Part shown: positions 35,818-56,960 of the stretch, piece by piece
How positions within the stretch are numbered: position 1 is the first letter of the stretch
Layout of the letters: every line of letters begins with the position of its first letter
Assembly (NCBI GenBank): GCA_963796635.1
Contig: CAWCMH010000001.1
Coordinates: 198,296 to 262,295 of the forward strand
From: an uncultured Gemmatimonadales bacterium
Lineage (GTDB): Bacteria; Gemmatimonadota; Gemmatimonadetes; Gemmatimonadales; GWC2-71-9
Direction: 5' to 3'
DNA: 64,000 bases
Made by a program: the position numbers and the translations under genes
The notes under the pieces: model-generated
The model's input: the letters and a program-made list of their open reading frames with translations, nothing else
What the model was told of the DNA's origin: nothing
Databases searched by the model: none

Positions 35818-35853
35818 CAGGTTTGTCGCTCAGGATGCGCAGTGTGCCGGCGC

Positions 35854-36229: not shown

Positions 36230-36764
36230 GTGCTGCGGCGGGAACTTTACCGGATCGCGCGCGGCGGAGCAACCCGCCGCCGCTCCGGCGTCCCACCCCC
36301 GAAACACTGAAACCCGCGCCGCCCCGCTGCGTACCGCTTTCCATTCCTCTCCCGAGACGCCGATGCTCGACGCGCTGACGCAGGACGCGCGCTTGGCCGC
36401 CCCACCGCACAGGGTGACAATCTCCCCACTGTCGTCCCGAGCGCAGTCGCCGCAGTCGAGGGATCTCGGAGATACGCGTTGATGCCGGCGTCGCTGAAGC
36501 GACGGCTCGGCACTGCGAAGGCGCTTCCGCGCCTGCGCGTTCGGACAGCGATCCCTGACTGATCTCGGGGTGGCAGCAGGACGGCCAGGCGCGACCGCGG
36601 CTCGGCTGCCCACGCCGTCATCGGAGACGGCTACCGTGGGCGGACCAGCGCTGCGGTGCGGAGCAGTTTCTCGTCACTCGCCCGCCACAGTGTGTCGGTT
36701 TCAGGCTACACCATTTCGGCGCACGTAGTCATCCCCGTCAAGGACACAGTGCGAAGCTAGACGT

Positions 36765-37600
36765 TCACGCCGCGATGGGCCTCGGCAAATAGGTGCGGGG
36801 CGGCGCGCCACCGAGGCTGCTGTGCGGCCGCTCCGTGTTGTACATCTCCCGCCACTGCTCCGTCACCTGGCGCACCTCGGCCAGCGAGGTGAAGACCCAA
36901 GCGTCCAACACTTCGGTGCGATACGTCCGGTTGAAGCGTTCGATGAAGGCGTTCTGATTCGGCTTCCCGGGCTGGATGTGGATCAACTCGACCCCGTGCG
37001 CGTCGCACCACGCGGCGAGCGCCGCCGCGATGAATTCCGGTCCATTGTCGCAGCGCAGGCGGTCGGGCGTGCCATGGATCGCCACCAGCTGGTCCAACAG
37101 TGCCACGACCCGGACACTCGGCAGCGACATATCGATCTCGTTCGCGAGCGCTTCGCGGTTGCCTTCATCGAGCACATTCAGGATGCGGTACTGCCGGCCG
37201 TCGTACAGGGTGTTCCCCATGAAATCGAGCGCCCACGTCCGGTTCAGGACCGCCGGGGCCTCCAGCGCCAGGCGCGGCCGCGTCAGCATGCGCTTCTTGC
37301 CGCGGCGCTTCAGATTCAGCCGCAGCGCACAGTACACCCGGTACACCCGCTTCGCGTTCCACGCGTGCCCCATCGCGCGCAACCGCTCGTAGCAGAGCCC
37401 GAAGCCCCACCGACTGTTCCGATCAACGAGCGCCAGGAGTGCCGTGACCACCGGCTGATCCCTGGCCGATCGATCGGCGGCGGGGCGATACCACGCTGTC
37501 CGCGAGAGTCCGGTGAGCTGGCAGGCCCGCACGATCGACCGCGCGTGCTCCTGCACCCGCATCGCCACGACGGCCCGACGCGCGGACAGCGCTACAGTTT
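36765..37600 (-). CDS. IS3-family transposase OrfB (rve/DDE), expressed via -1 frameshift from orfA
   Basis: DDE core WALDFMG...NVLDEGNRE...LRCDNGPEF...QPGKPNQNAFIERFNRTYRTE. It is in the -1 frame relative to orfA. An A4 run (complement of TTTT at 37598-37601) lies at the overlap. Confidence 0.8.
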
Positions 37601-37858
37601 TCGGCTGAGCACGTCCTTGATCGCCGCGTTCTCGAGCGCCAGCTCGGCGTACATCCGTTTGAGCTTGGCGTTCTCCTGCTCCAACTCCTTCAGCCGCCGC
37701 AGCTCCGGCACCGACGTGCCCCCGTATTTCGCCTTCCAGTTGAAATAGGTCGGGCGGCTGATGCCGTGCTTGCGGAGAATCTCCGCCACGGGCACTCCCG
37801 CCGCGCCTTCCTGCAGCACTGCCACGATCTGGGACTCGCTGAACTTCGACTTCCGCAT
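37592..37858 (-). CDS. IS3-family transposase OrfA (HTH + leucine zipper)
   Basis: MRKSKFSESQIVAVLQEGAAGVPVAEILRKHGISRPTYFNWKAKYGG...ELRRLKELEQENAKLKRMYAEL. Confidence 0.85.
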   Translation of the reverse strand: MRKSKFSESQIVAVLQEGAAGVPVAEILRKHGISRPTYFNWKAKYGGTSVPELRRLKELEQENAKLKRMYAELALENAAIKDVLSRKL

Positions 37859-38399
37859 TGCTCCTCCTGAGCAACGAAAAGTCTAACCTACGGTGTGTCC
37901 TGCGAGGGGAAGACTACGGAGCTATCACGGTTGATCTTCGTTCCCGCACCTATCAGTATCAGCCAGTGAAGAACTCGCGGGCGCGGAGGACCCCGTCACG
38001 TGCCAAGCGGCGTAGGTAGTGGGTTCGCCTGCGCGTTCGATACGAAGGCAATACGAACGGCCTAAGAATGGTCCCGCTGTAGGTATTGTGCGACACGCAG
38101 CACGAAACCATGTCGCACAACCGAAACCAGCGCTGTGGTTGGCGAAAACGGTTGCGAAGCGCACGCGCCGAAAACGGCTCAGTGCAGAGGTTTGCTAGGC
38201 CACTAGGAAAGACCATAGGAGTCGGGGATGGGACTTTCCCCAGTTCCTCGCGGGCATCGCGTACGGTAAGTTGCAAGTCGTTCTGATTAGCCAATGCGTG
38301 CTCAATGACCCATTTCGCGATCACTCCGTGCGGTGCGACGCACAAACCGTTTCTGCGAAGCTGACGTGCATCTGCTTTGGGCGAAGGAGGGGGGACGCA

Positions 38400-39668
38400 A
38401 TGTGGCTCAGGGTGCTCGACACCGACTGTCGGGGCACAATTGTCCGGCGATGCGCCCGGGCCTTTGTCGTGGGTCTCTTCTGTTGCTCGTCAATTGGCGC
38501 GCAAGAGTTCAGTAAAGTTGTACCTGTCTCACGGGAACGAGTGATTCGCGGCGGTGACAATCACGTGTCCGGCGTCTCTGCTCTGTCGGTGGGAGCAAAC
38601 GGCTTGCTTGCTGTTTTTCAACCGCTTACTCGATCAGTGAAGTTCTTTGACACAACGGGTCACCTCCGTCGCGAAATTGGCGGCAGGGTCCCGATTGGCT
38701 TGGCGTCGCTCGGTCGCCATGGTTGGATCGCCGACACAATGTGGCTGACGGACCTGGAAGGGCGCAGGGTGGTATTCGCGGCCACGTCTGACCCACGAAT
38801 CATTCGTTCTGTTGTGTGGTATCAGCGGGCGAATACCTCGCCGCATCTTGCTCTGCCCGGGCCATTGTCATTCTATGACTCGCCTGTCGCGTTGTATTTA
38901 AACGGAGATGCACTTGTGAGTCGAAGGCGGGTAAGCACGTCGGGGGTCCGCGCCGCGGGGCCGGTTGTTGTTCCACCGCGCGAAACTCTTATCCGTGTCG
39001 GCCCAAAGGTTGGGGTCGATCGCGTGATTGCTGCGTTGGCCGATGATGCGGGACATTGTGAATGGACACCGTCCGGCCCTGATCGCGGTACGTTCGGTAT
39101 ACCCTTCTGCGCTCAAGCGCTCCATACAGTATCCAGCGATGGCGCGGTTGTATCGGAAGTGATTCAGTCAAATAGTCGTGGACCATCGGGGTCTTTTCGC
39201 GTAGTCACCATTGCTTCCTCGGGCGACACACTATGGTCGCACTTGTATCGATATGTTGCAATGGCGATCCCGGCCAGAGTGCGAGACAGTCTAGAAACGG
39301 CGCTTGTCGCTCGCGCGGCGAACACGCGAAGTGTCACGCACTCATATTCGTCGACCCCCGATGCCGTGGGTATACCGCACTTTTATCCACCTGTGAGGCG
39401 TCTCCTGGCTGGTGACGACGAATTCGTGTGGGTCGAACTGTGGACCGCGGCACCTGTACATCGTTGGTTGAGACTCGAACCACACGGTCGAAATGTTGGC
39501 ATTGTGGAATTGCCGCTTGACGTGCGGCTCGAAGCCGCGGTGAAGAGATATATTTGGGGTGTGCAGCCAGATCCTATGGACCGCAAGCAGGATGTCGTTC
39601 GCTATCGTTTAGGAATCCACACTGATCCGCCAGCGCGCTCGGATCAGCGGTCGGATCGCGCGCACTAA
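38400..39668 (+). CDS. Secreted beta-propeller-like protein (paralogue of 25457..26605)
   Basis: GAAGGAGGGGGG RBS upstream of the ATG at 38400. Hydrophobic N-terminus. The C-terminal block is homologous to 25457..26605. Lower-GC codon usage. Confidence 0.6.
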   Translation: MWLRVLDTDCRGTIVRRCARAFVVGLFCCSSIGAQEFSKVVPVSRERVIRGGDNHVSGVSALSVGANGLLAVFQPLTRSVKFFDTTGHLRREIGGRVPIGLASLGRHGWIADTMWLTDLEGRRVVFAATSDPRIIRSVVWYQRANTSPHLALPGPLSFYDSPVALYLNGDALVSRRRVSTSGVRAAGPVVVPPRETLIRVGPKVGVDRVIAALADDAGHCEWTPSGPDRGTFGIPFCAQALHTVSSDGAVVSEVIQSNSRGPSGSFRVVTIASSGDTLWSHLYRYVAMAIPARVRDSLETALVARAANTRSVTHSYSSTPDAVGIPHFYPPVRRLLAGDDEFVWVELWTAAPVHRWLRLEPHGRNVGIVELPLDVRLEAAVKRYIWGVQPDPMDRKQDVVRYRLGIHTDPPARSDQRSDRAH

Positions 39669-39687
39669 CCCGCTTCAAGGAGTTATT

Positions 39688-40152
39688 ATGACGTTCCGAA
39701 TACTCGCGGTTATGGCCGTGGTCGCCCTCCGAGCGCCAAGTGTGCGGCATGGCGCAGAACAGACCCCCACGACGAAGGCGACCGAGGCCCTTTCGTGCGT
39801 GGACGCCAGTGAAGACGAAATGATGCTCACCGGGACATTTGAGGGCGTGTTCTATAATATTAGTGGATACGGACAAACGTTCGACTTCAGTTGCGGCAGT
39901 GCGTATCGGTCTGAGTCGTGCTCGGTGGACGGCTCCGCAAGTCAGTATGTGGCGCCCGACGATTACGCGTACCGCACCGTGACCTGGACCGTAAACACCA
40001 GCTATGACAACGGCTGGACCGAGTACGAGGCGGGAATTTATCACATGAATGTTTACACTTATGCCGCCGACCGACCTGAGATCACGACAAGCTCAACGAC
40101 GTATGGTCCCCGGAATGAGGATGGCTCATACCCGTGTGGTACTGACTATTGA
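39688..40152 (+). CDS. Small secreted hypothetical protein
   Basis: Signal peptide MTFRILAVMAVVALRAPSV. Cys-containing, Tyr/Thr-rich. Lower GC. Confidence 0.5.
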   Translation: MTFRILAVMAVVALRAPSVRHGAEQTPTTKATEALSCVDASEDEMMLTGTFEGVFYNISGYGQTFDFSCGSAYRSESCSVDGSASQYVAPDDYAYRTVTWTVNTSYDNGWTEYEAGIYHMNVYTYAADRPEITTSSTTYGPRNEDGSYPCGTDY

Positions 40153-40220
40153 TTCCCCCTGACCGCAAGCGTTGAGGATTCGGGGGCTACCCGTTAGATG
40201 TTGGCGTCCAGAAGACTGGA

Positions 40221-41372
40221 GTGTGTTTCTTGAGTTGCGCGCAACAGCGATCGGCGATCGTTCTTGCGGCAACCTTGGTTGCCGCTTGCACCCATAGCGA
40301 CAGCTTCACGTACAGTGCGCCGGTGGTCGGACCGCGCTCCACCGGCGCGAGCGTCCAGCTCACCTTCAATGCCGATCAGGACTACTGGCCCTCGTGGACT
40401 CAGGACGGCAAGGGGATTCTCTACGCCTTTGTGCAGCCTGGCCCGTCGGTGATCCACCGGTGTCTCGGTCTCCTTCCCGCGTCGGGTGGCACGCGAGTCT
40501 GGGAGTTGTGCGACAACCGGGCTATTCGGTCCGATAGCGTGAGCAGCTACACCGGATACGCCCTCGACAGTACCGGCCATCTGCTGATCGCCGAAGCAGT
40601 CAGTTCCCGGTCGTTCAACTTCTCGCTTCACCCGCAGCTCTTTCTGACGGACACGGCGACGCCCTACGTTCGGTCCACTCTGTTGACACTGCCAGTGACT
40701 GAAGGGGATGTCGTGGTCAGCTGGTTGAGTGATATCGCCTGGACCGCTCCCAATAGTTTTGTTGCATTGGGTCAGCAGTTCGGCAGTGGCTCTCACTGCG
40801 AGCATTGTGGCTGCAGCCCATGCCCGACCGATTCCAACTATTACGGAAACGGCGTTGTCCTTGCAGGAATCATCGTCAACGGCCACGCGACCGTTCGGCC
40901 GGTGGCGGGGACCGACGGTGCCACGGGCTACGCACTCTCCGATGATCGCTTGTCCGTCGTCTTCACGCGTCTGAACGATGTGCGCTTGTTTCAGGTGCCG
41001 CTGGCCGGCGGCAATCCCATTACCCTCGCCACGGTCGTGCCCGATGCAGGGCGGGAGCTAATGGGAGTAGCCTGTCGGCACGGGACATGTCTAGTCGCAT
41101 ATACAAGGGTCAGCTTCGGCGGCGGCTTTACTCTACTTGAAGACAGCGCCTCGACCTTAGCTCGCGTCTCGCTCACCACTGGCGTTGTACAAGACATTGA
41201 ACCCTTCATTGGAATTGTCGCCACGCCGCAGGTGTCCGCAATATCTGGAGATGTTGTTGTGGAGGCGGGACCGGTGACGGCCGGGATGAACATCGCTCCT
41301 GTGCTCGGTCACTTGGCGACGTATGCCGGCGGAAACTCTGACTTATACCTCTATAAAACGGCGATCCCGTGA
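40221..41372 (+). CDS. TolB/PD40-like beta-propeller lipoprotein
   Basis: Lipobox LVAAC. PD40-like motif DYWPSWTQDGKGILYAF. The start is uncertain: GTG 40221, or TTG 40230 with GGAG upstream. Confidence 0.55.
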   Translation: MCFLSCAQQRSAIVLAATLVAACTHSDSFTYSAPVVGPRSTGASVQLTFNADQDYWPSWTQDGKGILYAFVQPGPSVIHRCLGLLPASGGTRVWELCDNRAIRSDSVSSYTGYALDSTGHLLIAEAVSSRSFNFSLHPQLFLTDTATPYVRSTLLTLPVTEGDVVVSWLSDIAWTAPNSFVALGQQFGSGSHCEHCGCSPCPTDSNYYGNGVVLAGIIVNGHATVRPVAGTDGATGYALSDDRLSVVFTRLNDVRLFQVPLAGGNPITLATVVPDAGRELMGVACRHGTCLVAYTRVSFGGGFTLLEDSASTLARVSLTTGVVQDIEPFIGIVATPQVSAISGDVVVEAGPVTAGMNIAPVLGHLATYAGGNSDLYLYKTAIP

Positions 41373-41579
41373 GTGTTGCTTTGCCAGTGGCCGTCGGTGA
41401 CGTCTCCCCCGAAAACTTGGGCAGTTCAGAAGTAGAGTAAACTAGGCTTCGGTGGTCCCTGCGACACGAAAGGGAGGGACCGATGAAACGCTCGAAATTT
41501 TCCGAGGATCAGATCGCCTACGCGCTGCGCCAAGCCGAGGGCGGCACGCCGGCCGCCGACGTCTGTCGGCAGCTCGGCA

Positions 41580-42701
41580 TCAGCGAGGCGACGTTTTACC
41601 TCTGAACGCTTCTATGTCAATCCCCGATCGTCCCGCTGCTTGTAGCATGGTCGTGATCGCATCACGCTGGAGCGCACGAAAGACGACGTTGGCCAGCTGA
41701 CGCTTGAGCGCTCGGAGGGCCTCCTTTGAGGATTTGCCTTCGCGGGTCTTTTTTGCCAGGTACGCTTGTGCCGGAGCGAAGCCCCGACGCTGAACCACGG
41801 CGACAACGTGCAGGACGTGGTTGAGTTGCCGATTGCCGCGTCGGCTTAGACGGTGCCGGCGTCGGTCGCCGCTTGAGGCCTCGAGCGGCGCCACACCCGC
41901 ATACGCGGCGAAGCGGGCCGCCGTCGGAAAGCGGTCGATATGATGGATGATCCCGACGAGTTTGGCCGCGCACAGCGGACCGACGCCATGGATGCTCAGA
42001 AGCGCCGGCGCGAGTTGGTCGGCGAGTACGCGGAGTTCCTGATCCAGCGCACGGATCATTTCGTCGTACATGAGGACCATGGCCGCGAGCTGGCCGACAA
42101 TCATCGTGCGGGCCTGCGTGAGCGAGGTCGACGCGGATGGCTTGGCTGCGGCGAGTTCGCGGAGCCAGGGCCGGTTCCGCCGCGCCTGAAACGCATACCG
42201 GGGCGCAGCGGGATGGGTGTGCGTCACGTGCGCGTACAACTGATTGAGGGCCGCCGTTCGGGCGAGGATCAGATTGTCGCGGTGCTCTGAGAGCACGTGA
42301 CAACGGGCGGGGGCGCCGTCGACCGCGATCGCCGGCAAGCGGTCGCCGTCCCGCAAGGTGACCCGCGCGATCGCCAAGGCGTCGGTGACATCCGATTTCT
42401 CGGCCTCGCGTCCCCGGCTGCGTCGGCGCTCGGCGGCTGTGGCGCTACCCGGCACTTCGACGACGACGGCTCCATGACGAATCAGGTGCTGCGCGAGCGC
42501 TCGTCCGTAGTGCATGGCCCCTTCAATGCCCCAGCGCCTGACGCCGCCAGCCACATCGAGGGCACTCGCCCACTCCTGACATTGCTGCGCTCCGATCGGC
42601 GTTGCCTCCGTCACGCACGCGTCGACCCGTCGACCCGTTTCATCCACCGCGACCGCCACCCAGCCATACTTGTGGGCGTCTACACCAATGACTACCGGCA
42701 T
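41580..42701 (-). CDS. IS110-family transposase
   Basis: The N-terminus MPVVIGVDAHK is DEDD_Tnp_IS110-like. The C-terminal Transposase_20 pattern is LLSIHGVGPLCAAKLVGIIHHIDRFPTAARFAAYAGVAPLEASSG. The last few codons run across the junction into IS3 sequence. Confidence 0.85.
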   Translation of the reverse strand: MPVVIGVDAHKYGWVAVAVDETGRRVDACVTEATPIGAQQCQEWASALDVAGGVRRWGIEGAMHYGRALAQHLIRHGAVVVEVPGSATAAERRRSRGREAEKSDVTDALAIARVTLRDGDRLPAIAVDGAPARCHVLSEHRDNLILARTAALNQLYAHVTHTHPAAPRYAFQARRNRPWLRELAAAKPSASTSLTQARTMIVGQLAAMVLMYDEMIRALDQELRVLADQLAPALLSIHGVGPLCAAKLVGIIHHIDRFPTAARFAAYAGVAPLEASSGDRRRHRLSRRGNRQLNHVLHVVAVVQRRGFAPAQAYLAKKTREGKSSKEALRALKRQLANVVFRALQRDAITTMLQAAGRSGIDIEAFRGKTSPR

Positions 42702-42908
42702 CGCAACCTCGGCGAAGGAGTGAAGCGGCTGCTGCGACATTTCTGTGTGAGGTCCGCATTCCCGGCGGAGTGCGTCACGCTTCTATCAAGTCAGCAGGAA
42801 CCGCGTCTCGATGCCGTTGGCGGCACGTCCAAATGAAGTGACCGAGCACAGAAAAAGAGTGAGCCAGCCAACGGCACCGAGATACTAACGCTTCCCAGGG
42901 TAACTCAC
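41603..42908 (-). mobile_element. IS110-family insertion sequence nested in IS3 orfA (ends approximate)
   Basis: The insert is delimited by the break in orfA homology (after ..ATFY at 41599, before KKKY at 42911). It carries a DEDD-type IS110 transposase. Exact termini cannot be fixed by eye. Confidence 0.7.
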
Positions 42909-43038
42909 AGAAGAAGAAGTACGCCCATCTGGGCGTGAGTGAGCTGCGCCGCTTGCGCCAAGTCGAGGACGAAAACCGGCGACTGAAACAGCTGGTCGCC
43001 GATCTCACCCTCGACAAGCACATGCTCAGCGAGGCGCT

Positions 43039-43908
43039 GCGAAAAAAAGTCTGAAGCCGACCCGCCGCCGGGAGCTGGCTACGTGGTTCCGCGACACGTA
43101 CCAGGTCAGCACCGTGCGGGCGTGTCGGCTCGCCCAGCTGAGTCGGACGGCGTGGTACCGCCGTCCGCAGGCGGAGGATCAGGCGGTGCTGCGGGCGCGC
43201 ATTCGGGAGCTGGCGCACGCGCGGCCGCGGTTCGGGTTTCTGCGCATCTGGGTCCTCCTGCGACGCGAGGGGTGGCTCGTGAACAAGAAGCGGGTGCGCC
43301 GGCTGTACCGCCTGGAAGGCTTGCAGGTGCGGATGCGCGTGCGGCGGCGCAAACACATCGCCTTGCACCGCGGCCCGGCGCCGCTGCCGGTCGCGGCGGA
43401 CGAGCGGTGGAGCATGGATTTTGTGCACGATCAGTTGGCCGACGCGCGCCCGTTTCGCGTGCTCACGGTGGTCGATCAGTGGAGTCGCTCCAGTCCGATC
43501 CTGGAGCCGGCGTTTTCGATCCGCGGACTGGACGTGGCGGACGCGCTCGATCACGCGATCGAGGACGGTCCGTCGCCGCGGTCCATCACGGTGGATCATG
43601 GCACCGAATTCATGTCGCGCGCGCTCGAAGACTGGGCGTACCGTCGCGGCGTGCAGCTCGACTTCACGCGACCCGGCAAGCCCACCGATAACGGGCACAT
43701 CGAGTCGTTCAATGGCCGGTTGCGGAATGAATGTTTGAACGTGCAGCAGTTCGTGTCGCTGGCCGATGCCCGGGAGAAGATCGAAGCGTGGCGACGCGAT
43801 TACAATCAAGTGCGACCCCACAGCTCGCTCGGGCACCTGACCCCGCAGCGAATTCATCACCGAAACCGTCAGGGACAACGGACCGCTGAAACCGCGTTAC
43901 TCTCATGA
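43039..43908 (+). CDS. IS3-family transposase OrfB (rve/DDE), -1 frame relative to orfA
   Basis: WSMDFVHD...TVVDQWSR...ITVDHGTEF...[21 protein letters not shown]...[11 protein letters not shown]. The -1 frame from the A7 run joins ..LRKK to [14 protein letters not shown]... Confidence 0.8.
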
Positions 43909-43936
43909 TGGGCTGTATCCAAACGGGACCAACGTC

Positions 43937-44905
43937 ATGCACCCCGAAAGTCTAGCTATAATCTGTCTACCGATTGGGGAGGGCTACGCCATGATTGCCG
44001 GCGATATCAACGGCGACGGCTTGGCGAATGACCGCGCCTTCATTCCAGCTAGTGGTGAAGGCGACAGCGGGATCCGCGATCAGCTGTCCGCGCTGTTGTC
44101 GTCTGCTCCACAGCTCGTTCGCAATTGCTTGACGGAGCAGCGTGGGCAAATAGCCGCCGCAAATTCTTGCCGCGGTCCATGGCAAACGCGGTTGGACATC
44201 AACATTGACTTTGTTCCCCCACGTGGTGTCGGTCTTGGTAACCGCCTGCACATCACGACTAAGCTGATCAACGTTGGCGCCGCACTGGAGCGCGGTCTCG
44301 GGCTTGGGGCTGGTACCACGATGGGTGCCTTTCCCGATCAAAGACTCCTCTACATAACAGGATTTGATCCTGCTACTGAATCCTTTCGATATCGGGTCAA
44401 TCAGCTGTTCGGCCAGCCTATAGGCACCAGCATGACGAACCATTTCCCTCCCTTTCAGCTTCAGTTGGGCGCGGAGTATCGGTTCAGCGAGGCACCCCAG
44501 AATCCGGTAGTAAAGGAGATGGGCCTGACCCAAACCGGCGACTCCGCAACGATGGCCCGTCACGTCCTCGATGCATTTCACCGGATCTCGAAAAATCCCA
44601 TCGATACCATCCTAGCCTTTAGGGACTCGCTTGAGCTGGACAAAACGCAGGTTGCTCTCCTGCGCGGCGATCGAGAGGAGTATGAGAGTCAGGTTGCAGC
44701 ACTATCCGCTCCATTAGTACCGCTGATCCTTCAACAAGGCAAGAGGCTAACCGATGATAACTTGACGTACGTTCTGATTCGCCTTCTCTCGTCGATTGAG
44801 CCAGCTCGGACGGCGACTCGCAACCGAGCGATCGCAAGGCTCAATCCGGCTCAGCTGCTGAAGCTTGACGCATTGCTCGCCTCGGACCGTTCCGGACATA
44901 ATTAG
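43937..44905 (+). CDS. Hypothetical protein, probably 5'-truncated by the adjacent IS
   Basis: The ORF's ATG overlaps the last base of the IS3 right end. The sequence begins mid-domain-like (..GDINGDGLANDRAFIP..). Lower GC. No signal peptide. Confidence 0.4.
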   Translation: MHPESLAIICLPIGEGYAMIAGDINGDGLANDRAFIPASGEGDSGIRDQLSALLSSAPQLVRNCLTEQRGQIAAANSCRGPWQTRLDINIDFVPPRGVGLGNRLHITTKLINVGAALERGLGLGAGTTMGAFPDQRLLYITGFDPATESFRYRVNQLFGQPIGTSMTNHFPPFQLQLGAEYRFSEAPQNPVVKEMGLTQTGDSATMARHVLDAFHRISKNPIDTILAFRDSLELDKTQVALLRGDREEYESQVAALSAPLVPLILQQGKRLTDDNLTYVLIRLLSSIEPARTATRNRAIARLNPAQLLKLDALLASDRSGHN

Positions 44906-44959
44906 CATGTCGACGCTTGCTCGTCATGCCATGTACCGCCGGCACTCAAGGTTGACGCC

Positions 44960-44982
44960 GTTGAAAAGCGTTTACGCTCAAC
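44960..44982. terminator. Hairpin between convergent genes
   Basis: GTTGA-AAA-GCG-TTTA-CGC-TCAAC lies between the stops at 44905 (+) and 45002 (-). Confidence 0.3.
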
Positions 44983-45001
44983 GTCAGGTGGCCGATGACA
45001 C

Positions 45002-48000: not shown

Positions 48001-48130
48001 CCAGCAGGCACACGTCTGGATCAGATGCCAAATCTCGGACTGCCGAGACGATGTGTTCCACTCGACCGAGAACCGGATCGTTTTCCTCCCGAATGTGAAT
48101 GTCGCTAAGGTGTAGCACGAGGATCTGCAT
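45002..48130 (-). CDS. Metallophosphoesterase - P-loop NTPase - helical C-terminal region fusion protein (STAND-like architecture)
   Basis: Start set at MQILVLHLSDIHI (48130). All four calcineurin-like MPE motifs are present: SDIH (DxH), LSGDIAN (GD), VPGNHD (GNHD), LTGHEHE (GHxH). Walker A GSDESGKT lies at aa 395-402 (nt 46925-46948). Walker B ILLVDDAS lies at about aa 462-469. About 550 aa of helical C-terminus have no recognised domain. It is a single gene in a lower-GC patch. Confidence 0.75.
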   Translation of the reverse strand: MQILVLHLSDIHIREENDPVLGRVEHIVSAVRDLASDPDVCLLALSGDIANSGLAEQYELASAWLSALCGSLSIVFRPSTRVLVAVVPGNHDCALHEVSPARAVLIDAMLREPHLADDPATAAICVQPQQSFFRFRDAIAAEGLSDATPRLYYEYLVEGSSGRLCIRCLNTAWVSQIPEQPTRLMFPESSIEPAAPASSDPRDTVVISMMHHTYNWLAIGNTRVVRRQLQSTSDFILTGHEHEFGVSHLLDELGGEAVHIEGVALQGDGHPRPSAFNILEINSAGQEYRVIPFQWHRTAYVGDLNCATASWSAFSVNPLRAGHAFPLTPTMRQRLVDPGTTLLHPTRGQLALDDIFVYPDLREVTAAPVETRAKVHPGEDLLDLAIDRKRILITGSDESGKTVLAKRMFLAALDAGLVPIFLDGSHLTLEGDDHDRREVARAFADQYVAEEAGLWEVSMDKRILLVDDASSISASSIGVSAAIDRLSRLADTTVLFSNDLAQLVNQIAGIVPSLRGGTPFAQFRLLPMGFVRREELIDRYVVMADVVDAAAADELRADMRRILGVAVGQYGAPPTPVSVIAILQGRAFQESLNLQQSTYGYYYDLLIRRQLVGLGATIQQIDVQLAYLTQLAFEAAEERMVRWTEAWMMAFHQRFVDDRRLPMGFRNLVDAFIKRGILQEANGEIAFRYDYLNNYFASRALAERIGSEVGRARVRELTRHLHEQESANTLLFLTHHTKDPAVLDPMLEQAATLFAESLPADLSTGSTRLPQLEEALASVAYVDRSSADGRREYLTALDREDLDSIGGSDVATERLDARRIERDAALQSVVDVMTRLSVAFRTMKILGQVLKNFPGTLTGDQKDRITRAVYGVGRRVLGYVHKLLQDSPHELAEEVVAAVRHRHPELSGNDLVLAAQNAAYWQIYITAYSMVQRTASDVGTPLLDPVFSDIAKLSPLPAVELITMAIRLQRAAGLSEPEVRSLYDRLDRNGLGQRVLRSLVVTHLHLFDVRREVRQSICSQLNIPFVPLLPDAPTRMLGPGRK

Positions 48131-48388
48131 CTTCAGCCCCCCAATTGAAATTAGGACCATGACTAGTGTTCGTTGATCACTGATGCGCGGTGTGCGCCTA
48201 AAACTGATGGCTCCATGACCGCGACGACCCGCTTCATCGTCGCGAGCGTGCGGAAGAGCATGGTTCATCGAACCCGTGATAACCCTGACAGGCCGTGTGC
48301 TGCCGTGTGACCCGCCAAAGGTTGCTTCATCGTTGTCGATGTCGTTTGTAAGTCATAGAGGATACCGCAGGTGTTCGGTGCATCCTGG

Positions 48389-49024
48389 TTACTCTTGCTC
48401 ATCGCGAAATTGCCGCTCGGCCCAGCGGATCAGCTGGGCTTTGCCATGAATCCCCAGTCGCCGCGTGAGCGTGGCCACGTGATATTCGACCGTCTTGGTC
48501 GAAATGTCGAACTCGGCGGCGATGTTGGCATACGAGTGGCCGGAGCGGAGGCGCGCCAACACGCTGCGCTGGCGTTCCGACAGGTGGATGGGACTGGCCG
48601 CATCCGGAAACGCGCCACCACCCGCGCCCCGGCGTTGCATCATCGGCGTCACATAGGTTCGCCCGGCGAGAGCCTCGTCGATCGCGATCCGCAATTCGGC
48701 CGGCGCGGATTCTTTGACAATGTATGCCACGGCTCCGGCACGCAGCGCCGCGTCGGCGAGGACCGGGTCCGCGTGCGCCGTGAGAATGACGAACCGTGTT
48801 TCCGCATACCGAGCCACCAAACGGGGCAAAGCCTCGAGCGCGCTGACCTTGCCGAAGGCGAGATCAAGCAGAACGATTTGAGGGGACGTGCGGGAGATTC
48901 CGCTTTCAAGTCCATCGAGTCCAGTAACGATGCCCACCACTTGGTACCAGCGGCCGAGCGACGATGAAAGTGCCTCAGCGATGAGCGCATGGTCATCGGC
49001 CACAAGGACGGTGGGCCGGGTCAC
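48389..49024 (-). CDS. NarL/LuxR-family response regulator
   Basis: REC domain (VLVADDHALIAE...IVLLDLAFG...). C-terminal LuxR HTH (LSERQRSVLARLRSGHSYANIAAEFDISTKTVEYHVATLTRRLG). Confidence 0.85.
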   Translation of the reverse strand: MTRPTVLVADDHALIAEALSSSLGRWYQVVGIVTGLDGLESGISRTSPQIVLLDLAFGKVSALEALPRLVARYAETRFVILTAHADPVLADAALRAGAVAYIVKESAPAELRIAIDEALAGRTYVTPMMQRRGAGGGAFPDAASPIHLSERQRSVLARLRSGHSYANIAAEFDISTKTVEYHVATLTRRLGIHGKAQLIRWAERQFRDEQE

Positions 49025-49770
49025 GAGGCTTTCCCCGGCCGCGGTATCATGGCGACCACCCGGGTTCCCTTGTGCGGTGCGCTTTCGATCCGGAGGCTTC
49101 CGCCCAGAATGCCGAGACGCTCCCGCATTGAAGCGATGCCGATCCCAGGCCCAGCGATCCGGCGACTTGCGTCAAAGCCGCAACCGTGATCTTCGATGAT
49201 CAGAGTTATGGTTGTGGGATCCTGTCGCAGTTCCATGCGCACGCGATCGACGCCTGCGTGCCGTGCAACATTTCCAAGAGCCTCCTGGGCGACCCGGTAA
49301 AGGGCGAGCCGTTGGGGCGGGGCCGCGCCATCGAACAACGAGCCGGTGATGTAGTCGACGGTCATGTTTTCGCGGTCACCTAGGGTCACGGCCAAGTCGC
49401 GCATCGCGGCGTCCAAGCCAACGTGGTCGAGCAGGGTGGGGTGAATGCTGCGGGCGAAGCCGCGCAAATGGTCCGCCAGTTGATCGAGGCGCGCCGCCAT
49501 TGCCGTTACGGCTGGCAGGTCGCAGGCCTGCGCTTGCAGGGTCAGCGTGATCAGTGTCTGCACGATGTCATCATGCAGTTCTCGGGCGATTGCGGCGCGT
49601 TCCTCATCCTGGGCTGTCAGCAACCTCCCGCCGAGGAAGGCACGGGCTTTCAGCAGCCGGCGTCGTTGCACCACTGCGGACGCGATGAGCAACCACACCA
49701 GGAGCGTGGCCACCACCGAACCGGTGATTAGGATCGCGAGCAGGACGTTCTCGTGATGAACCGGCGTCAC
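49021..49770 (-). CDS. Histidine kinase core (HisKA_3 + HATPase_c) with one TM helix
   Basis: GTG start at 49770 overlaps the upstream stop (GTGA). H-box ARELHDDIVQTL. ATPase boxes EALGNVARHA, DHGCGF and GPGIGIASMRERL. 4-nt overlap with the response-regulator gene. Confidence 0.7.
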   Translation of the reverse strand: MTPVHHENVLLAILITGSVVATLLVWLLIASAVVQRRRLLKARAFLGGRLLTAQDEERAAIARELHDDIVQTLITLTLQAQACDLPAVTAMAARLDQLADHLRGFARSIHPTLLDHVGLDAAMRDLAVTLGDRENMTVDYITGSLFDGAAPPQRLALYRVAQEALGNVARHAGVDRVRMELRQDPTTITLIIEDHGCGFDASRRIAGPGIGIASMRERLGILGGSLRIESAPHKGTRVVAMIPRPGKAS

Positions 49771-50435
49771 GGCTGCGGCCCCGTCGAGTCGGCGGACGGC
49801 AGGAACAGTGCCCGGATGAGAATCACTTCGGCCAGTGAAGCCAGCAGATTGCACATTGCATAATATCGCTCCACATACCCTAACATGTCGCGGATCAGCA
49901 GCTGTACCATCAGTGTCTGCAGCGATGATGCGACGCCGTAGCCCGAGAGCCCGGCCGCGATCAGGAATCCGGGATCGACAAGCGTGTCTACCCGTCCAAA
50001 CCACGCGCGCTGCCGAAGAGTCGCGATGGCTGGCACCAGAATGACGAGTGAATGCAATGGGTTCAGGTAGGTCGAATACGACGTGACCGGCTCGACGGTG
50101 AGCAATAACGTGACCCAGGTCACGGCGTAGCCCAGCATGAGCGCGCGAATCAACGTTGCGCGGCGACGGGTGAGTTGGTAGGACGCCAGCGCTTCGAGCG
50201 CGAAGATCACGGCCATAAGGATCCAGACGTGGGCGATGGTCTGGCTGTTGTGTGCCACCCGGGCCGCGGCGAATGATGCCGCGTCCAACAAGGCGGCACA
50301 GCCAAACCACAGCGTGATCGCGCGTTGGCCGCGTCTACTCAGGCGCCACCGCACCGACCCGACGATGAAACCGGTCAGTTCGAGCGCGGACATTCCGTAC
50401 TCAATGACGAGGCTCCAGTCCACCGACCTGATCAT
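49767..50435 (-). CDS. Multi-pass membrane protein (possible detached sensor domain of the kinase)
   Basis: 222 aa with 6-7 hydrophobic helices. Ends in a GTGA overlap with the kinase-core ORF, in a different frame. Confidence 0.6.
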   Translation of the reverse strand: MIRSVDWSLVIEYGMSALELTGFIVGSVRWRLSRRGQRAITLWFGCAALLDAASFAAARVAHNSQTIAHVWILMAVIFALEALASYQLTRRRATLIRALMLGYAVTWVTLLLTVEPVTSYSTYLNPLHSLVILVPAIATLRQRAWFGRVDTLVDPGFLIAAGLSGYGVASSLQTLMVQLLIRDMLGYVERYYAMCNLLASLAEVILIRALFLPSADSTGPQP

Positions 50436-50440
50436 GCCGA

Positions 50441-50776
50441 TTATGTGCCGCCGTTAAGGCTGTTCGACTGACTACAAAATGGTGGACATGGAAGTGGCTG
50501 CTCTTCGGTGCCGCCGCCATTGGCAAGCATATCGTCGCCGTTCGCATCGGTGCCAACCAGCACGAACGTCCATCGACTCTCTCCGGTGTTGCCGTCATCG
50601 GGTTTGAGGCCCAAGTAGATGCGGATCCCGGCACAGCCGGGCTGGCCGAGAAGGGTATCGAAAGCGATGCGATCGAACTGGCCGGCGTTGAGCGCGCCTG
50701 CGGGCTGGCTGTCGCGCCACCGTGCAGTCAGCTGGGCGGCGTCGTGGGGAGTGATGAAGTGCGGGTCGTCGGGCAT
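50441..50776 (-). CDS. Small hypothetical protein
   Basis: 111 aa (..LLGQPGCAGIRIYLGLKPDDG...WTFVLVGTDANGDDML...CPPFC..). No recognised family. Confidence 0.45.
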   Translation of the reverse strand: MPDDPHFITPHDAAQLTARWRDSQPAGALNAGQFDRIAFDTLLGQPGCAGIRIYLGLKPDDGNTGESRWTFVLVGTDANGDDMLANGGGTEEQPLPCPPFCSQSNSLNGGT

Positions 50777-51274
50777 CGGGCTGTCCTGGAAGCAAGGTGG
50801 GTCGTTGGTGGCTCGCAGGACACAGCTTACTCCCTAACAACCCGTGAGGCCACTAGGGAAACACCTAGTGAGATGGGTCCTGGGTGCTTTACTAGTTCCC
50901 CTGACGCCGGAATTCTTCGTATCCTATGTGCCTGCGATGGCCAATGGTCAGCAGAGCGCTTTGCGGTCAAAGCCAGTCATTGCAGGCGAGGATTACCGTG
51001 CGAGCAATCAGGAATGTCGAATCCCAGAGCGCATGGTGTATGGCGCGGGCGTCAGGCTACACGCGTTCCGAGATCATGGAATGCCACCCAATGGCCCGCA
51101 GATGCCTTGTAACGATACGATCGTAACCACGAGACCAGTTCGCAAAGGACCCACTATGGCTCCCATGTTTAGCTCGACCACAAGATCATCAGGTACACGC
51201 TCCTTTGACGATGATCTCCGTGCCGGGGGACGGCTCGGCGCGATCGTGCTACTACTGCTTGTTAGCACGCATCT

Positions 51275-52590
51275 GGTACAGACTGAGGACATGGGTTACA
51301 CGTTGGACCGAGGACATCGGTTACACCTGCGTTAGATCCGGTTCCGATTGTGCGCGCCGTGCATCCGATAATCTCGCTCATCCAGCCGCCCCAGCAAGAG
51401 GTCGCCGAAATACACCGACCAGATGCCATCGGCGACCTCATCGAGTCCGACGTACTCCTCCGCCAGGACGTGGCTCACGTTCACCCACCGATGCTGCCAA
51501 CGGATGCCGCCGTTGGTCGAGACATACCGGGTCTCGTAGTGGCGCGGGTACTCTGGGCTCCGGATCGTCCGTGGGTACGCGCGTGGCGAGGCGACGTAGT
51601 GCTGCGCCGGCGGTTCCTGGCCGAGGGCCTCGTGGGGCCGCTCCGTGTTGTAGTCCTGCTGAAAGGCATCGAAGCGACGTTGCTGACCACGGGGCGTCTG
51701 GGCCGCGGGTCGCGTCGCTTCCGCCTTCAGCGTGCGATGCATCCGTTCATGCCGCCCATTCTGTTCGGGGTGCGCAGGCTGAATGAGCTCCGGCGTGATG
51801 CCCAGCTTCAGCCACCACACACTGAGCGCCGAGAGTCGACCCAGCGCGCACGTCGCAAAGGGGGTGCCGTTGTCGCTGCGAATGCGATCCGGCAAACCAT
51901 ACGTCCGGAAGATCCGCTCGAAGACGCTCCGCGCACCGACACTCGCCGTCGACGGCAAGCCGTGACACGCCAGCAAATAGCGCGAGTAGCCATCGACGAT
52001 GGTGAGTGGATAGCAGTACGCGCCGGTGCCCAAGCGAAACTGTCCCTTGAAATCGACGGTCCACAGCGCGTTCGGCGCGTCCATCGGGGTGGTCGGTCGC
52101 CCGGGATGGCCGGGCGCAGGACGCCGCCGGCGGGCGCGCACCAGCCCTTCTCGCTTGAGCAGCGCGCCCACCGTACTCGCGACCGGCCATGGGTCGCGTC
52201 GCGGATGCCGCCGTGCGAGATAGGCCAGCAGCTTGCGCGGACCCCACGTCGGATGCGCCTGCCGCGTGCGCACAACCAGCGCCGCGAGCTCCCCATCCAA
52301 GAGTGTCGGGCTCGTCACCGGCCGTCGCGAGTGCTCTACGAATCCCGCCGCGCCCTCGACCTGGAATCGCCGCCACCATTTGTGACCGGTCTTTCGACTG
52401 ATGCCGAACCGCGCACAGAGCTCCGTCATCTGCCAGTGCTCGCGCGCAAACGCCTCGACAAAATCCTGCCGCTGCGACATAGGGGTCTCCACTCTCCACG
52501 GCATCACGCACCTCCTCGGTGCATGAAACCAACTTGAGAAGTGTTACCTATGTCCTCGGTCTATCTGTTACCGATGTCCCCGACTGCTCC
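51275..52590 (-). mobile_element. IS481-family insertion sequence, copy C (1316 bp)
   Basis: Same ends as copies A and B. One synonymous difference in the transposase gene (His codon CAT vs CAC). 3-bp direct repeat TCT at 51272-51274 and 52591-52593. The right end lies 7 nt from a TGCTAAC motif (complement of GTTAGCA 51261-51267). Confidence 0.9.
51332..52507 (-). CDS. IS481-family DDE transposase
   Basis: 391-aa product identical to that of copies A and B. Confidence 0.9.
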   Translation of the reverse strand: MMPWRVETPMSQRQDFVEAFAREHWQMTELCARFGISRKTGHKWWRRFQVEGAAGFVEHSRRPVTSPTLLDGELAALVVRTRQAHPTWGPRKLLAYLARRHPRRDPWPVASTVGALLKREGLVRARRRRPAPGHPGRPTTPMDAPNALWTVDFKGQFRLGTGAYCYPLTIVDGYSRYLLACHGLPSTASVGARSVFERIFRTYGLPDRIRSDNGTPFATCALGRLSALSVWWLKLGITPELIQPAHPEQNGRHERMHRTLKAEATRPAAQTPRGQQRRFDAFQQDYNTERPHEALGQEPPAQHYVASPRAYPRTIRSPEYPRHYETRYVSTNGGIRWQHRWVNVSHVLAEEYVGLDEVADGIWSVYFGDLLLGRLDERDYRMHGAHNRNRI

Positions 52591-53945
52591 TCTCGATCTC
52601 GCATGGGGTCAAGTACGTCCGGGTGGGGGTGCCCCAAACGGCCAGCCACAGCAAGCTCAGCCTGCAGTGGCCTCGAGCGCTCCGACCGCGCCAGTGCAGA
52701 GTGGCATCACAGGGGGCAGCGCGGTGATTGAGGCGACACTCTTCTCGTATCAAGCCCTCGCGAGCGAGGCCAACGCAGTTGCGAAAGCAGTTCTTACTAA
52801 AGTGGGAGACCCTATGTGTTCGTCGAGGTGTCCGACCGTAGTCATCGCCACGCCATCGGACATTCAGGCAATCTTTGCGTGGCGGGCCACGATCGAGCAA
52901 TTGCGGTTCTTGGAGAAGCGCTCAGATGCGCTCGTCGACATGAAGGCCACATCTGACCTGTGTCCCGCGCCGGTTCATCCAGTGCCTCGCATGGCAGCGG
53001 TTTCCATTCCATCTCCCACGGACGTACAAACACTTGCACAGACACTTCAGACACTCGCGGGCCTAGCGGCAGTATCCGAGAATGTATCACCGGCCGCACA
53101 ATCCATGACGGATGCGCCATTGCAGGCGTTACTTGCAGGAGATCTCGCGGCACCAAGGCATGTCGCAGTTATACTTCCCAGCGCATATACTCCGGGAGCG
53201 TTGAGCAGTTCCGGGCTCGACAGCTCCTTCATAGAGATCGAACTTAATACGCTGGAGCAGGGGCGGAGTGATCTTACTCTTGCCATGAATGACTGCTCGT
53301 TTGCGGTGGCCCACGCCGTCGCAGATGCCCCAAAGCCTTCCGCTGTGGGGACCGGTGGAAAGGCAGGAGGGGGTGGAAACACCGATGATAACGCCGCAGT
53401 TGTGCTTCCAGACACGTTGCCGATCCACGCTCTCATGACATCGATGGTTACACAAATCACACTGATTGATGCGTTCGAGGCAGGACTGTTCGCCGCCCAG
53501 TCAGGCGGCGCTCCTGCGCTGACTCCATCAGCCACTGCAAACAACGCATCGCCGGTACCGGCAGTATCGCTGGTAAGTCCGCAACCCGGTGCTCCCATTC
53601 AGCAAGTCCTTGCAGGGGACCTCCTTGCCTACCGTCTTTGGCATGGGCAATCGTCCCCGAAGCCAGAGGATCTCAAAGCGCTTTATTTTCTCACCGCGCA
53701 CGCGCTGGAAGCCGGCGGCGAGATGTTCGCGAAGACGAACGTATTCACTGGGACACGCGTGGTCTACGGTGGCGGCGCAGTCATGACGTTCACTTTGTTC
53801 GCTGGCGACGGGACGGTCGAATGCTCGGGAATCGCGTATGGTTACCACGGTGATACGCGACCCTCCGGCGTCGAGAAGGCGTTAGAGAAGCCACTAACCA
53901 CAGTTCTGAGCGGAAGCTGTTCGATGTAGATCTTCGATAGATGCT

Positions 53946-54458
53946 GTGAAACGAGTATTATGCTATCGTTGGTGTGTGCTCGCACACGGTATGAAGCCCT
54001 ATCGTCAAACCCTCTACGAAACATGCTTAGCTGTGTGCTTGTTGCTTATCGGGGGTGTCGCACCAACCCAGGCACGAGAGTTGGCGATATGGGAGGCAGG
54101 ATGGCAATTCAATTTCCTGAGCGGCCAGCTGGAATATTTCACTGCACAATTTGGCAAACAGCTCGCCGTTCTTGTCGAAGACCCGGGGTACTATGTGCGT
54201 CTCGGTCGCCGTCCCCTAGCTGGCGTTAAGTTCTTCAAGGGGCACGTCGATGTCGGCAAGATTGTTCGACAACTTCGATGGGGACCCGTGATCGTCTACT
54301 TGGACAACTACCGCTTAGCGGGAGTTGTGCACTATCCGCACTTCGTCATCGTTCGATCTGCAACGACGCGGCAATTCATCGTCTTAGACTCCATGGACGG
54401 GCGAGTGAAACGGCTAACCAAGGTTCGAATTCAGCACCCTCTCTGCCAACATGAGTGA
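53946..54458 (+). CDS. Papain-fold cysteine peptidase, C39-like
   Basis: The Gln/Cys block YRQTLYETCLAVCLL, the His block HYPHFVIV and the Asp block IVLDSMDG are in the order typical of C39-type peptidases. The start is uncertain (GTG 53946 or ATG 53991). Lower GC. Confidence 0.5.
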   Translation: MKRVLCYRWCVLAHGMKPYRQTLYETCLAVCLLLIGGVAPTQARELAIWEAGWQFNFLSGQLEYFTAQFGKQLAVLVEDPGYYVRLGRRPLAGVKFFKGHVDVGKIVRQLRWGPVIVYLDNYRLAGVVHYPHFVIVRSATTRQFIVLDSMDGRVKRLTKVRIQHPLCQHE

Positions 54459-54509
54459 GACACCGCTCCTGCTGTAGTTTAGTGTACGAGGGCGATCGAG
54501 GTTGTTCCG

Positions 54510-54929
54510 ATGGTGTCGTCTCTTGCTCAAAGTCCCGTCCTGGTGCACGATGTGGGGGTGTCCACCCACCGCAGTCGGCGCCGTTTCACCGCCGCGTATA
54601 AGCAGCAGATCCTGGAGGAAGCCGCCCGCTGTACCGCGCCCGGTGCGCTCGGCGCGTTGTTGCGGCGCGAGGGATTGTATTCGTCGCACCTCGCCGCGTG
54701 GCGGGCCGCCGCCGCACGCGGGGAGCTCACCGGTCCCGCTCGCCGTCGTGGTCCCAAGCCGGTGCCGCCCGATCCGCAGGCCAAGCAGGTCGTCGCCCTC
54801 CAGCGCGCCTTGGCCCAGGCGTTGGCCCGCGCCGAGCACGCCGAGGCCTTGGTGGATCTCCAAAAAAAAGTCGCGGCGCTGCTCGGTCGACCACTCCCGC
54901 CGGCCGACGGGCCGAGCGCGGCACGCTGA
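54510..54929 (+). CDS. IS3-family transposase OrfA
   Basis: RRRFTAAYKQQILEEAARCTAPGALGALLRREGLYSSHLAAWR is HTH-like. Coiled-coil tail. Contains an A8 frameshift-type run. Confidence 0.75.
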   Translation: MVSSLAQSPVLVHDVGVSTHRSRRRFTAAYKQQILEEAARCTAPGALGALLRREGLYSSHLAAWRAAAARGELTGPARRRGPKPVPPDPQAKQVVALQRALAQALARAEHAEALVDLQKKVAALLGRPLPPADGPSAAR

Positions 54930-55648
54930 TGGACGCCATCGCAACGCGTGTCGGAGAGCGTCCGCGGCTCCGCGTCCGCCCGATGTGCGCGGCACTGCAG
55001 GTCGCGCCCGCGACCTACTATCGCACCCGGCACCCCGCGGTGCAGGGACCGCGCGTGCGACGCGCGGTCGCGCGGGCCCTCACGCCCACCGAGCAGGACA
55101 CGGTGCTGGCGGTCTTGCACGCGCCGCGCTTCGTCGATCTCGCGCCCGCGCAAGTGTACGCCACGCTCCTCGACGAGCAGACGTACCACTGTTCGGAGCG
55201 CACGATGTACCGCGTCCTCGCCGCGCACGGCGAAACCGTGGAGCGGCGGACCCAGCGGCACGGGCCAGTCTACGCCGCGCCGGAGTTGCTCGCGACAGCG
55301 CCGAATCAGTTGTGGAGTTGGGACATCACGCGGCTCAAAGGCCCGACGACGTGGACCTACTGGTATCTCTACGTGCTGCTCGATGTGTTCAGTCGCTACG
55401 TCGTCGGCTGGATGGTCGCCCCGCGCGAAACCGCGACGCTCGCCAAGCTCTTGATCGGGACGAGCTGCGCGCGACAAGGTATCGTCCGCGACCAACTCAC
55501 CGTGCATGCCGATCGCGGCTCGTCGATGATCTCGAAGCCCGTCGCGCTGCTGCTGGCCGATCTCGGCGTGACCAAGACGCATTCGCGGCCCTCGGTGTCG
55601 AACGACAATCCGTATTCGGAGGCGCAGTTCAAGACGCTCAAGTACCGT
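54929..55648 (+). pseudogene. IS3-family transposase OrfB, truncated at its 3' end by a nested IS
   Basis: WSWDITRLKG...YVLLDVFSRYVVGW...VHADRGSSM...SRPSVSNDNPYSEAQFKTLKYR, then IS-derived sequence. About 80-100 C-terminal codons are missing. Confidence 0.75.
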
Positions 55649-55689
55649 CGTAGTCTCCCCCGTCAAGGACACAGTGCGTCGCTAGACTT

Positions 55690-56525
55690 TCACGCCGCGA
55701 TGGGCCTCGGCAAATAGCTGCGGGGCGGCACGCCACCGAGGCTGCTGTGCGGCCGCTCCGTGTTGTACATCTCCCGCCACTGCTCCGTCACCTGGCGCAC
55801 CTCGGCCAGCGAGGTGAAGACCCAAGCGTCCAACACTTCGGTGCGATACGTCCGGTTGAAGCGTTCGATGAAGGCGTTCTGATTCGGCTTCCCGGGCTGG
55901 ATGTGGATCAACTCGACCCCGTGCGCGTCGCACCACGCGGCGAGCGCCACTGCGATGAATTCCGGTCCATTGTCGCAGCGCAGGCGGTCGGGCGTGCCAT
56001 GGATCGCCACCAGCTGGTCCAGCAGTGCCACCACCCGGACACTCGGCAGCGACATATCGATCTCGTTCGCGAGCGCTTCGCGGTTGCCTTCATCGAGCAC
56101 ATTCAGGATGCGGTACTGCCGGCCGTCGTACAGGGTGTCCCCCATGAAATCGAGCGCCCACGTCCGGTTCAGGACCGCCGGGGCCTCCAGCGCCAGACGC
56201 GGCCGCGTCAGCACACGCTTCTTGCCACGGCGCTTCAGATTCAGCCGCAGCGCACAGTACACCCGGTACACACGCTTCGCATTCCACGCGTGCCCCAACG
56301 TGCGCAACCGCTCGTAGCAGAGCCCGAAGCCCCACCGACTGTTCCGATCAACGAGCGCCAGGAGTGCCGTGACCACCGGCTGATCCCTGGCCGATCGATC
56401 GGCGGCGGGGCGATACCACGCTGTCCGCGAGAGTCCGGTGAGCTGGCAGGCCCGCACGATCGACAGCGCGTGCTCCTGCACCAGCATCGCCACGACGGCC
56501 CGACGCGCGGACAGCGCTACAGTTT
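55690..56525 (-). CDS. IS3-family transposase OrfB (rve/DDE)
   Basis: Homologue of 36765..37600. A4 run at the overlap (complement of TTTT at 56523-56526). Confidence 0.8.
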
Positions 56526-56783
56526 TCGGCTGAGCACGTCCTTGATCGCCGCGTTCTCGAGGGCCAGCTCGGCGTACATCCGCTTCAGCTTGGCGTTCTC
56601 CTGCTCCAACTCCTTCAGCCGCCGCAGCTCCGGCACCGACGTGCCCCCGTATTTCGCCTTCCAGTTGAAATAGGTCGGGCGGCTGATCCCATGCTTGCGG
56701 AGAATCTCCGCGACCGGCACCCCCGCTTGACCTTCCTGCAACACCGCCACGATCTGGGACTCGGTGAACTTCGATTTCCGCAT
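56517..56783 (-). CDS. IS3-family transposase OrfA
   Basis: 88 aa, 86/88 identical to the product of 37592..37858. Confidence 0.85.
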   Translation of the reverse strand: MRKSKFTESQIVAVLQEGQAGVPVAEILRKHGISRPTYFNWKAKYGGTSVPELRRLKELEQENAKLKRMYAELALENAAIKDVLSRKL

Positions 56784-56960
56784 TGCTCCTCCTGAGCAAC
56801 GGAAAGTCTAACTCACGCTGTATCCGATCAGGGGAAGACTACGCGCACACCCCCCGCAATTGTACTGTTTCGTGGTGCGACACGCGGGCATGGGAAATGC
56901 TCAGGCCACTCCGGAATGAGGTACAGGTATCGTGGCTGACCCCTCAACGGAGTTCAATCC

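Follow-up and report, generated by a model that had tools for sequence, protein, structure and literature searches.

Our analysis of a 64,000-nucleotide stretch of the genome of an uncultured soil bacterium of the Gemmatimonadales (contig CAWCMH010000001.1 of assembly GCA_963796635.1, positions 198,296 to 262,295; hereafter the window, numbered from its first letter) identified a block of 20,120 bp (36724-56843) in which two insertion sequences (ISs) of the IS3 family lie in the same orientation around 17.7 kb of cargo DNA. From its architecture, the block is most probably a composite-transposon-like unit that was assembled elsewhere and entered its present site as a single piece. The elements on which this reading rests are:

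36720-36723: left direct repeat CGCA, putative target-site duplication
36724-37918, minus strand: IS copy 1, IS3 family, IS407-group-like, 1195 bp, intact; tip of the right inverted repeat (IRR) at 36724 (outer), tip of the left inverted repeat (IRL) at 37918 (inner)
55649-56843, minus strand: IS copy 2, 1195 bp, with orfA, the frameshift region and orfB all intact; inner IRR tip at 55649, outer IRL tip at 56843
56844-56847: right direct repeat CGCA, pairing with the left CGCA at the outer ends

The flanks read CGCA-copy 1-GAGC and CCGT-copy 2-CGCA; the inner flanks (GAGC and CCGT) are thus unlike, and neither copy has a target duplication of its own. The outer ends of the block form a proper IRR (copy 1)/IRL (copy 2) pair with intact terminal repeats. 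An initial annotation, made from the sequence alone, had described two same-orientation 1195-bp copies with CGTAGTC tips, no matching flanks for either copy and CGCA on both outer sides, and we reproduced its coordinates, lengths, tips and flanks exactly. In an ungapped comparison, the copies show 47 differences and no indels (96.1% identity), and their identity ends exactly at the tips CGTAGTC...GACTACG, the next outward base differing on both sides. Given how often each 4-mer occurs in the window (64% GC), a pair drawn at random matches with p = 0.0059, a value higher than the 1/256 (0.0039) assumed initially, and with about 0.024 when the four possible flank pairings are considered. The site is intergenic, between tRNA-Arg(CCG) and a gene for a PEP-CTERM protein; the left flank ends in ...CACCATTTCGG, the right flank begins with CACCCCCCGCAATTG..., and a site without the block would be expected to read ...CACCATTTCGGCGCACACCCCCCGCAATTG.... 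The junctions between cargo and IS read GACTACGGAGCTATCACGG and CAAGTACCGTCGTAGTC.

The DNA between the two copies is compositionally foreign and was probably acquired horizontally. Its segments other than ISs have a GC content of 56.6-61.9%. Outside the block, the value is 69.8% in the adjoining 494 bp on the left and 62.5% in the adjoining 860 bp on the right, and the more distant chromosome has 66% on either side. The GC content at third codon positions (GC3) is 0.58-0.78 in the cargo genes versus 0.73-0.86 in the flanking chromosomal genes (most of them 0.76-0.86), the lowest flanking value, 0.73, being that of the PEP-CTERM gene to the right of the block. The composition shifts at the inner edge of each IS copy.

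Copy 2 directly adjoins the truncated orfB of another IS3-family element, whose OrfB is 57% identical to that of ISAzs23 from Azospirillum sp. B510. The orfA of this element starts at 54511, an A7G frameshift site lies at about 54860, and orfB is cut after ...FKTLKYR at 55648, with about 95 C-terminal residues absent relative to the ISAzs23 protein. The cut and the absence of the 3' remainder had been pointed out in the initial annotation, and a tblastn search with the ISAzs23 protein agrees, as it located no remainder in the whole window. The sequence to the right of copy 1 (GAGCTATCACGG...) does not start with CCGT, and the expected continuation of orfB is not encoded there. The orphaned orfB therefore indicates that the IS-cargo-IS arrangement, or at least a copy 2/orfB junction without its partner, existed before arrival.

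The bounding insertion sequences and their footprint

Each bounding copy encodes, on the minus strand, an 88 amino acid OrfA (HTH_Tnp_1, 1.3e-18) and an overlapping OrfB (rve_3, 7e-29; rve, 1e-13), with a score of 201 bits against the NCBIfam profile transpos_IS3 (cutoff 160). The genes of copy 1 are arranged as follows:

37858-37592, minus strand: orfA
near 37600, minus strand: -1 frameshift region, CGAAAAC
ending at 36765, minus strand: orfB

The -1 frame opens at ...AGC CGA AAA CTG TAG, in the overlap of orfA and orfB, where a frameshift is predicted. The length, the gene layout and the rve_3 tail of the copies fit a candidate member of the IS407 group of the IS3 family. Like the elements of this group that we compared (ISPam3, 1197 bp; ISPfe1; ISPmar2; IS407), they are about 1.2 kb long, have an orfA with HTH_Tnp_1 overlapping an orfB with rve and rve_3 through a -1 frameshift, are associated with a 4-bp target duplication and carry a C-rich block near the tips (..TCCCC). 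They differ from these elements in their CG...CG tips and in the slippery site CGAAAAC, which has no clear A6G/A7 run. IS3-family elements usually end in TG...CA, with known exceptions; the bounding copies and all eight relatives examined end in CG...CG instead. The inverted repeats are imperfect (IRL CGTAGTCTTCCCC..., IRR CGTAGTC(A/T)(T/C)CCCC...). The ratio of synonymous to non-synonymous differences between the copies is 12:4 in orfA and 8:9 in orfB, from which we infer that they diverged as working elements and not as decaying duplicates.

The footprint of this IS was determined from its relatives: OrfB homologues with 75-84% identity were located, their contigs were fetched and the element ends were aligned. 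Perfect 4-bp direct repeats flank three independent relatives (CCCG at L016, GGTC at L025 and TTTC at L026), and at least three perfect matches among nine loci would arise by chance with p of about 2e-5; four base pairs are therefore a real footprint of the clade of the bounding IS. This agrees with trap-plasmid captures of IS407-group elements of about 1.2 kb, where 4-bp repeats were found for three of four elements (PMC3281130), and bears out the duplication size proposed in the initial annotation. The CGCA repeat also survived a check of the termini, a shift of the tips by 1 nt destroying the repeat both here and at L016, L025 and L026. With its CG...CG tips and 4-bp footprint, the bounding IS represents an IS407-like clade that had not been characterised before.

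Uncultured soil and groundwater metagenomes and metagenome-assembled genomes (MAGs) of Gemmatimonadales are the sole sources of the nearest relatives of the bounding IS. Scans with orfB returned a single relative from genome contigs (L008, 83%, without duplication), only relatives of at most 43% identity from metagenome contigs and nothing from viral contigs, and an exact look-up of the copy 2 OrfB (P0121) gave no other record. A scan of the viral contigs with the IRR motif gave seven loci, none of which contained the IS, and these were discarded as chance matches. In three metagenome contigs from ENA (L018, L021 and L022), the full IRL of the relative is directly preceded by cccgtaggcttc, which repeats part of the tip of that IRL; a tandem or nested insertion into the end of an IS may account for this, as may an assembly artefact.

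Arrival of the block

We have high confidence that the block arrived as one IS-bracketed unit, and with respect to the route, transposition from its outer ends is favoured over insertion beside a resident IS. Elements of the IS3 family copy themselves out as a circle with abutted ends, which is then pasted into a target. By analogy, the unit would have been assembled at another site, copy 2 having landed inside the ISAzs23-like transposase gene; the transposase would then have paired the IRR at the outer end of copy 1 with the IRL at the outer end of copy 2, the entire unit would have been copied out as a circle, and the circle would have been pasted into the new target by 4-bp staggered cuts, leaving CGCA duplicated on its outer sides. 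Neither copy has lost orfA, the frameshift region, the DDE orfB or its terminal repeats. In addition, TTGACG occurs in the IRR at 12 nt and TAGTCT in the IRL at 2 nt from the respective tip, with TAnnnT conserved in the relatives; abutted ends separated by a 4-nt spacer would read TTGACG-N18-TAGTCT, resembling a junction promoter. Junction promoters are known for IS911 and IS2.

The initial annotation proposed that the two copies moved the intervening DNA as a unit. The footprint size, the termini, the foreign interior and the orphaned orfB all support this proposal, whereas they do not establish action of the transposase on the outer ends over the resident-IS route, as the two routes leave the same sequence signature.

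Several observations weigh against this account of the block. Its footprint is no longer than four bases. Neither the block nor its cargo was found a second time in genome, metagenome, viral or protein collections, where the initial annotation had suggested looking for the same block with different flanks, and in plasmid and phage collections (megablast) the cargo gave only a weak match, between the truncated IS and Azospirillum IS3 transposases. Likewise, among 5.8 billion proteins the closest homologue of the DS-8-like protein encoded in the cargo (45002-48268) is 53% identical. No empty site was found in the collections, which contain no conspecific genome. The four closest homologues of the arabinofuranosidase encoded in the flank (P0006, P0009, P0004 and P0003) are 76-79% identical; in their contexts, synteny extends at most to the outer membrane protein gene, there is no tRNA-Arg nearby and gene order across the junction is lost. 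The 4-bp duplication is absent at the relatives L008 and L017, both on long contigs, and several short metagenome contigs have one flank of a relative IS in common and the other flank different, so that scrambled flanks are evidently common for this IS. Finally, the copies are mosaics: over the 160 bp next to the IRL they share 85-87% identity, against 97-99.5% in the rest of the element, where one stretch of 218 bp shows no difference at all; homologous recombination has therefore acted on these elements.

The mosaic structure suggests that gene conversion between IS variants may have shaped the copies. The IRL-proximal segment of copy 2 is 96-98% identical to an IS on the JGI contig Ga0376646_0002072 (L028, 9645-10839), and at least three variants of OrfB are encoded in the source genome, corresponding to copy 1 (P0242), copy 2 (P0121) and a third form (P0243) whose residues match the other two in a patchwork.

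The strongest competitor to outer-end transposition is itself a variant of movement as a unit and overlaps with it: a resident IS with a CGCA duplication would have received either a linear IS-cargo-IS fragment or a circle made up of the cargo and one IS. RecA-dependent recombination or a targeted reaction of the transposase would have integrated it, with no new duplication. This gives exactly the observed flanks, and it has been documented for a 210-kb IS2-like composite, whose megacircle inserts beside a pre-existing IS copy (PMC6350997). The patchwork among the OrfB variants shows that recombination among IS copies occurs, and mosaicism as such does not discriminate between the two routes. 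Nothing in the sequence specifically requires a resident IS, however, and no replication or partition gene was recognised among the cargo genes. In the simplest version, an IS hopped into a plasmid or circle, which then formed a RecA-dependent cointegrate at a chromosomal IS. This version predicts a matching inner 4-bp repeat and the remainder of orfB at 37919; neither is seen, and the unlike inner flanks and the missing orfB remainder therefore rule out a simple hop of the junction IS into the cargo followed by recombination. Between the two routes, we regard insertion beside a resident IS as plausible but the less probable.

Far less credible is a coincidence, in which two ISs inserted independently, lost their own duplications through adjacent deletions or recombination and ended up with CGCA on both sides by chance. 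The region is indeed rich in ISs, L008 and L017 also lack duplications, and the repeat is just 4 bp long in GC-rich DNA. Such a match is nevertheless infrequent even after allowing for the four pairings; the coincidence would need two separate deletions, each ending precisely at an IS tip, and it leaves the compositional break at the inner edges of both IS copies unexplained. We therefore consider this scenario improbable.

Least probable of all is an assembly artefact, in which the assembler switched within the 1.2-kb repeats and threaded another IS-bearing molecule or strain locus into a chromosomal solo IS. In favour of it, the sequence comes from a MAG, the cargo differs in composition from the chromosome, and short-read contigs break at the IS edges and confirm only 30 nt of each junction. 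Against it, two coordinated mis-joins would be needed, the 47 differing sites are spread over both ends and resolvable by ordinary long reads, the cargo yielded no plasmid functions, and it carries an IS481-family copy, with a duplication of its own, that is 100% identical to two chromosomal copies and places both in the same cell. The right junction is reproduced independently by a Logan short-read contig (L001, ERR11594399), which corresponds to 56814-58531 with 100% identity and starts 30 nt inside copy 2.

Known composite transposons

Passenger DNA flanked and moved by IS3-family and IS407-group elements has been described before (PMC6350997, PMC9997749), and no new mechanism is involved here. 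The IS2-like composite carrying bcpAIOB in Burkholderia thailandensis E264 moves as a unit via a circular intermediate (PMC6350997). It resembles the Gemmatimonadales block in having direct IS3-family elements around passenger DNA, and its passenger system serves in conflict with other cells; it differs in size (210 kb versus 20 kb) and in belonging to the IS2 subgroup. Its mobility, circle junction and re-insertion beside a resident IS are experimental results, whereas movement of the block described here was deduced from its sequence.

A second parallel is the putative iuc3 composite transposon of Klebsiella plasmids, in which ISKpn78-like elements of the IS407 group flank about 16 kb (PMC9997749). 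In both cases, IS407-group flanks around accessory genes were deduced from sequence architecture. The iuc3 unit has truncated ISs and is found in many plasmids, whereas the present block has intact ISs and a 4-bp duplication and has been seen once. As in Tn5, Tn9 and Tn10, two IS copies would mobilise the DNA between them, with a target duplication at the outer ends only; those transposons are built from other IS families, their copies are usually near-identical, and Tn5 and Tn10 have inverted copies and move by cut-and-paste.

The DS-8-like gene and the remaining cargo

The largest cargo gene (45002-48268) encodes a protein that is likely a DS-8-like, putative anti-phage protein, as judged from profile matches. 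It scores 765.8 bits against the NCBIfam profile NF053861 (DS8_antiphage), covering positions 1-994 of 994 and falling just below the cutoff of 790 bits; it also matches the PADLOC profile PDC-S60 (2.7e-59) and the Pfam domains Metallophos and nSTAND_NTPase4. DS-8 is a single-protein metallophosphatase-NACHT system that was validated against phage in E. coli (PMC13092281). The lineage to which the protein of the block belongs appears to be rare, to judge from the database matches. A Logan contig that carries this gene together with the neighbouring two-component system (L002, compared with 44532-51304) ends at 44532, within unique cargo DNA rather than at the edge of an IS, possibly owing to low coverage or to a strain variant.

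The block adds a clear case of gene capture between ISs in Gemmatimonadota, a phylum from which, to our knowledge, few mobile elements have been described, and it ties a recently validated family of defence genes to a simple IS-based vehicle. It is conceivable, though we think it unlikely, that the block is a still-functional 20-kb composite transposon of the IS407 group that shuttles the DS-8-like gene and the two-component system via a large copy-out circle; if true, this would place IS3-family mobilisation of defence genes of the megacircle type well outside Burkholderia.

The cargo, from left to right, comprises:

37919-41390: first cargo segment, GC 58.6%, with four open reading frames (ORFs) without family match, at 37959-38345 (minus), 38271-39668 (plus), 39688-40152 (plus) and 40221-41372 (plus)
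41395-43985 (approximate ends), plus strand: second, different IS407-like element of the IS3 family, orfB at 43114-43908
41580-42740, minus strand: transposase of an IS110-family element, inside orfA of the second IS407-like element
45002-48268, minus strand: DS-8-like protein with metallophosphoesterase and STAND/NACHT-type NTPase, 1088 amino acids
48389-50310, minus strand: two-component system, with a LuxR/GerE response regulator at 48389-49024 and a HisKA_3/HATPase_c kinase from 49021
49767-50435 and 50441-50776: two small ORFs without assigned family, after the two-component system
51275-52590, minus strand: IS481-family element with its own 3-bp duplication AGA
52591-54451, plus strand: cargo segment, GC 57.4%, with two ORFs without assigned family at 52541-53929 and 53946-54458
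54452-55648, plus strand: 3'-truncated ISAzs23-like element of the IS3 family, adjoining copy 2

The initial annotation had listed the metallophosphoesterase-NTPase gene and the two-component system, both of which are present, along with three other IS types, where we found four further IS elements; the window as a whole contains at least eight. Splicing the two halves of the second IS407-like orfA around the IS110-family element restores a full HTH_Tnp_1 match. Paralogues of chromosomal beta-propeller proteins had also been proposed among the cargo genes. One pair lends this weak support: the ORF at 38271-39668 is 22% identical to the chromosomal ORF at 25457-26743, and the latter has a sub-threshold hit to the DUF5128 propeller.

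On the left side, the block is preceded by a tRNA gene, given here as context only:

36155-36229, minus strand: tRNA-Arg(CCG), 494 bp left of the block

No relevant att-like repeat of tRNA-Arg of at least 12 nt, as for an integrase-type island, was found. At the 3' side of the tRNA gene, within 35842-36229, lies a stretch of 340 bp with low GC content (58%). A 54 amino acid ORF at 35842-36006 resembled, by eye, the C-terminus of a tyrosine recombinase; it has no Pfam hit and was rejected as an integrase remnant.

The IS481-family copy at 51275-52590 has two counterparts of 100% identity outside the block, at 10278-11593 and 14190-15505, and each of the three has its own 3-bp duplication (GTC, CCC and AGA, the last being that of the cargo copy). 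The duplication of the cargo copy marks it as a separate, recent and simple insertion and, together with its identity to the two outside copies, indicates that it was probably inserted after the block had arrived. At a distance of 9-10 bp downstream of each copy there is a CTAAC..GCGCTTGCTGC-like motif, in a weaker form at the third copy, and this motif is also part of the palindromic repeat families D3-D5, of 50-80 nt, among the repeat families at 11605-20415. This suggests that the IS481-family element targets repeats resembling repetitive extragenic palindromic (REP) sequences.

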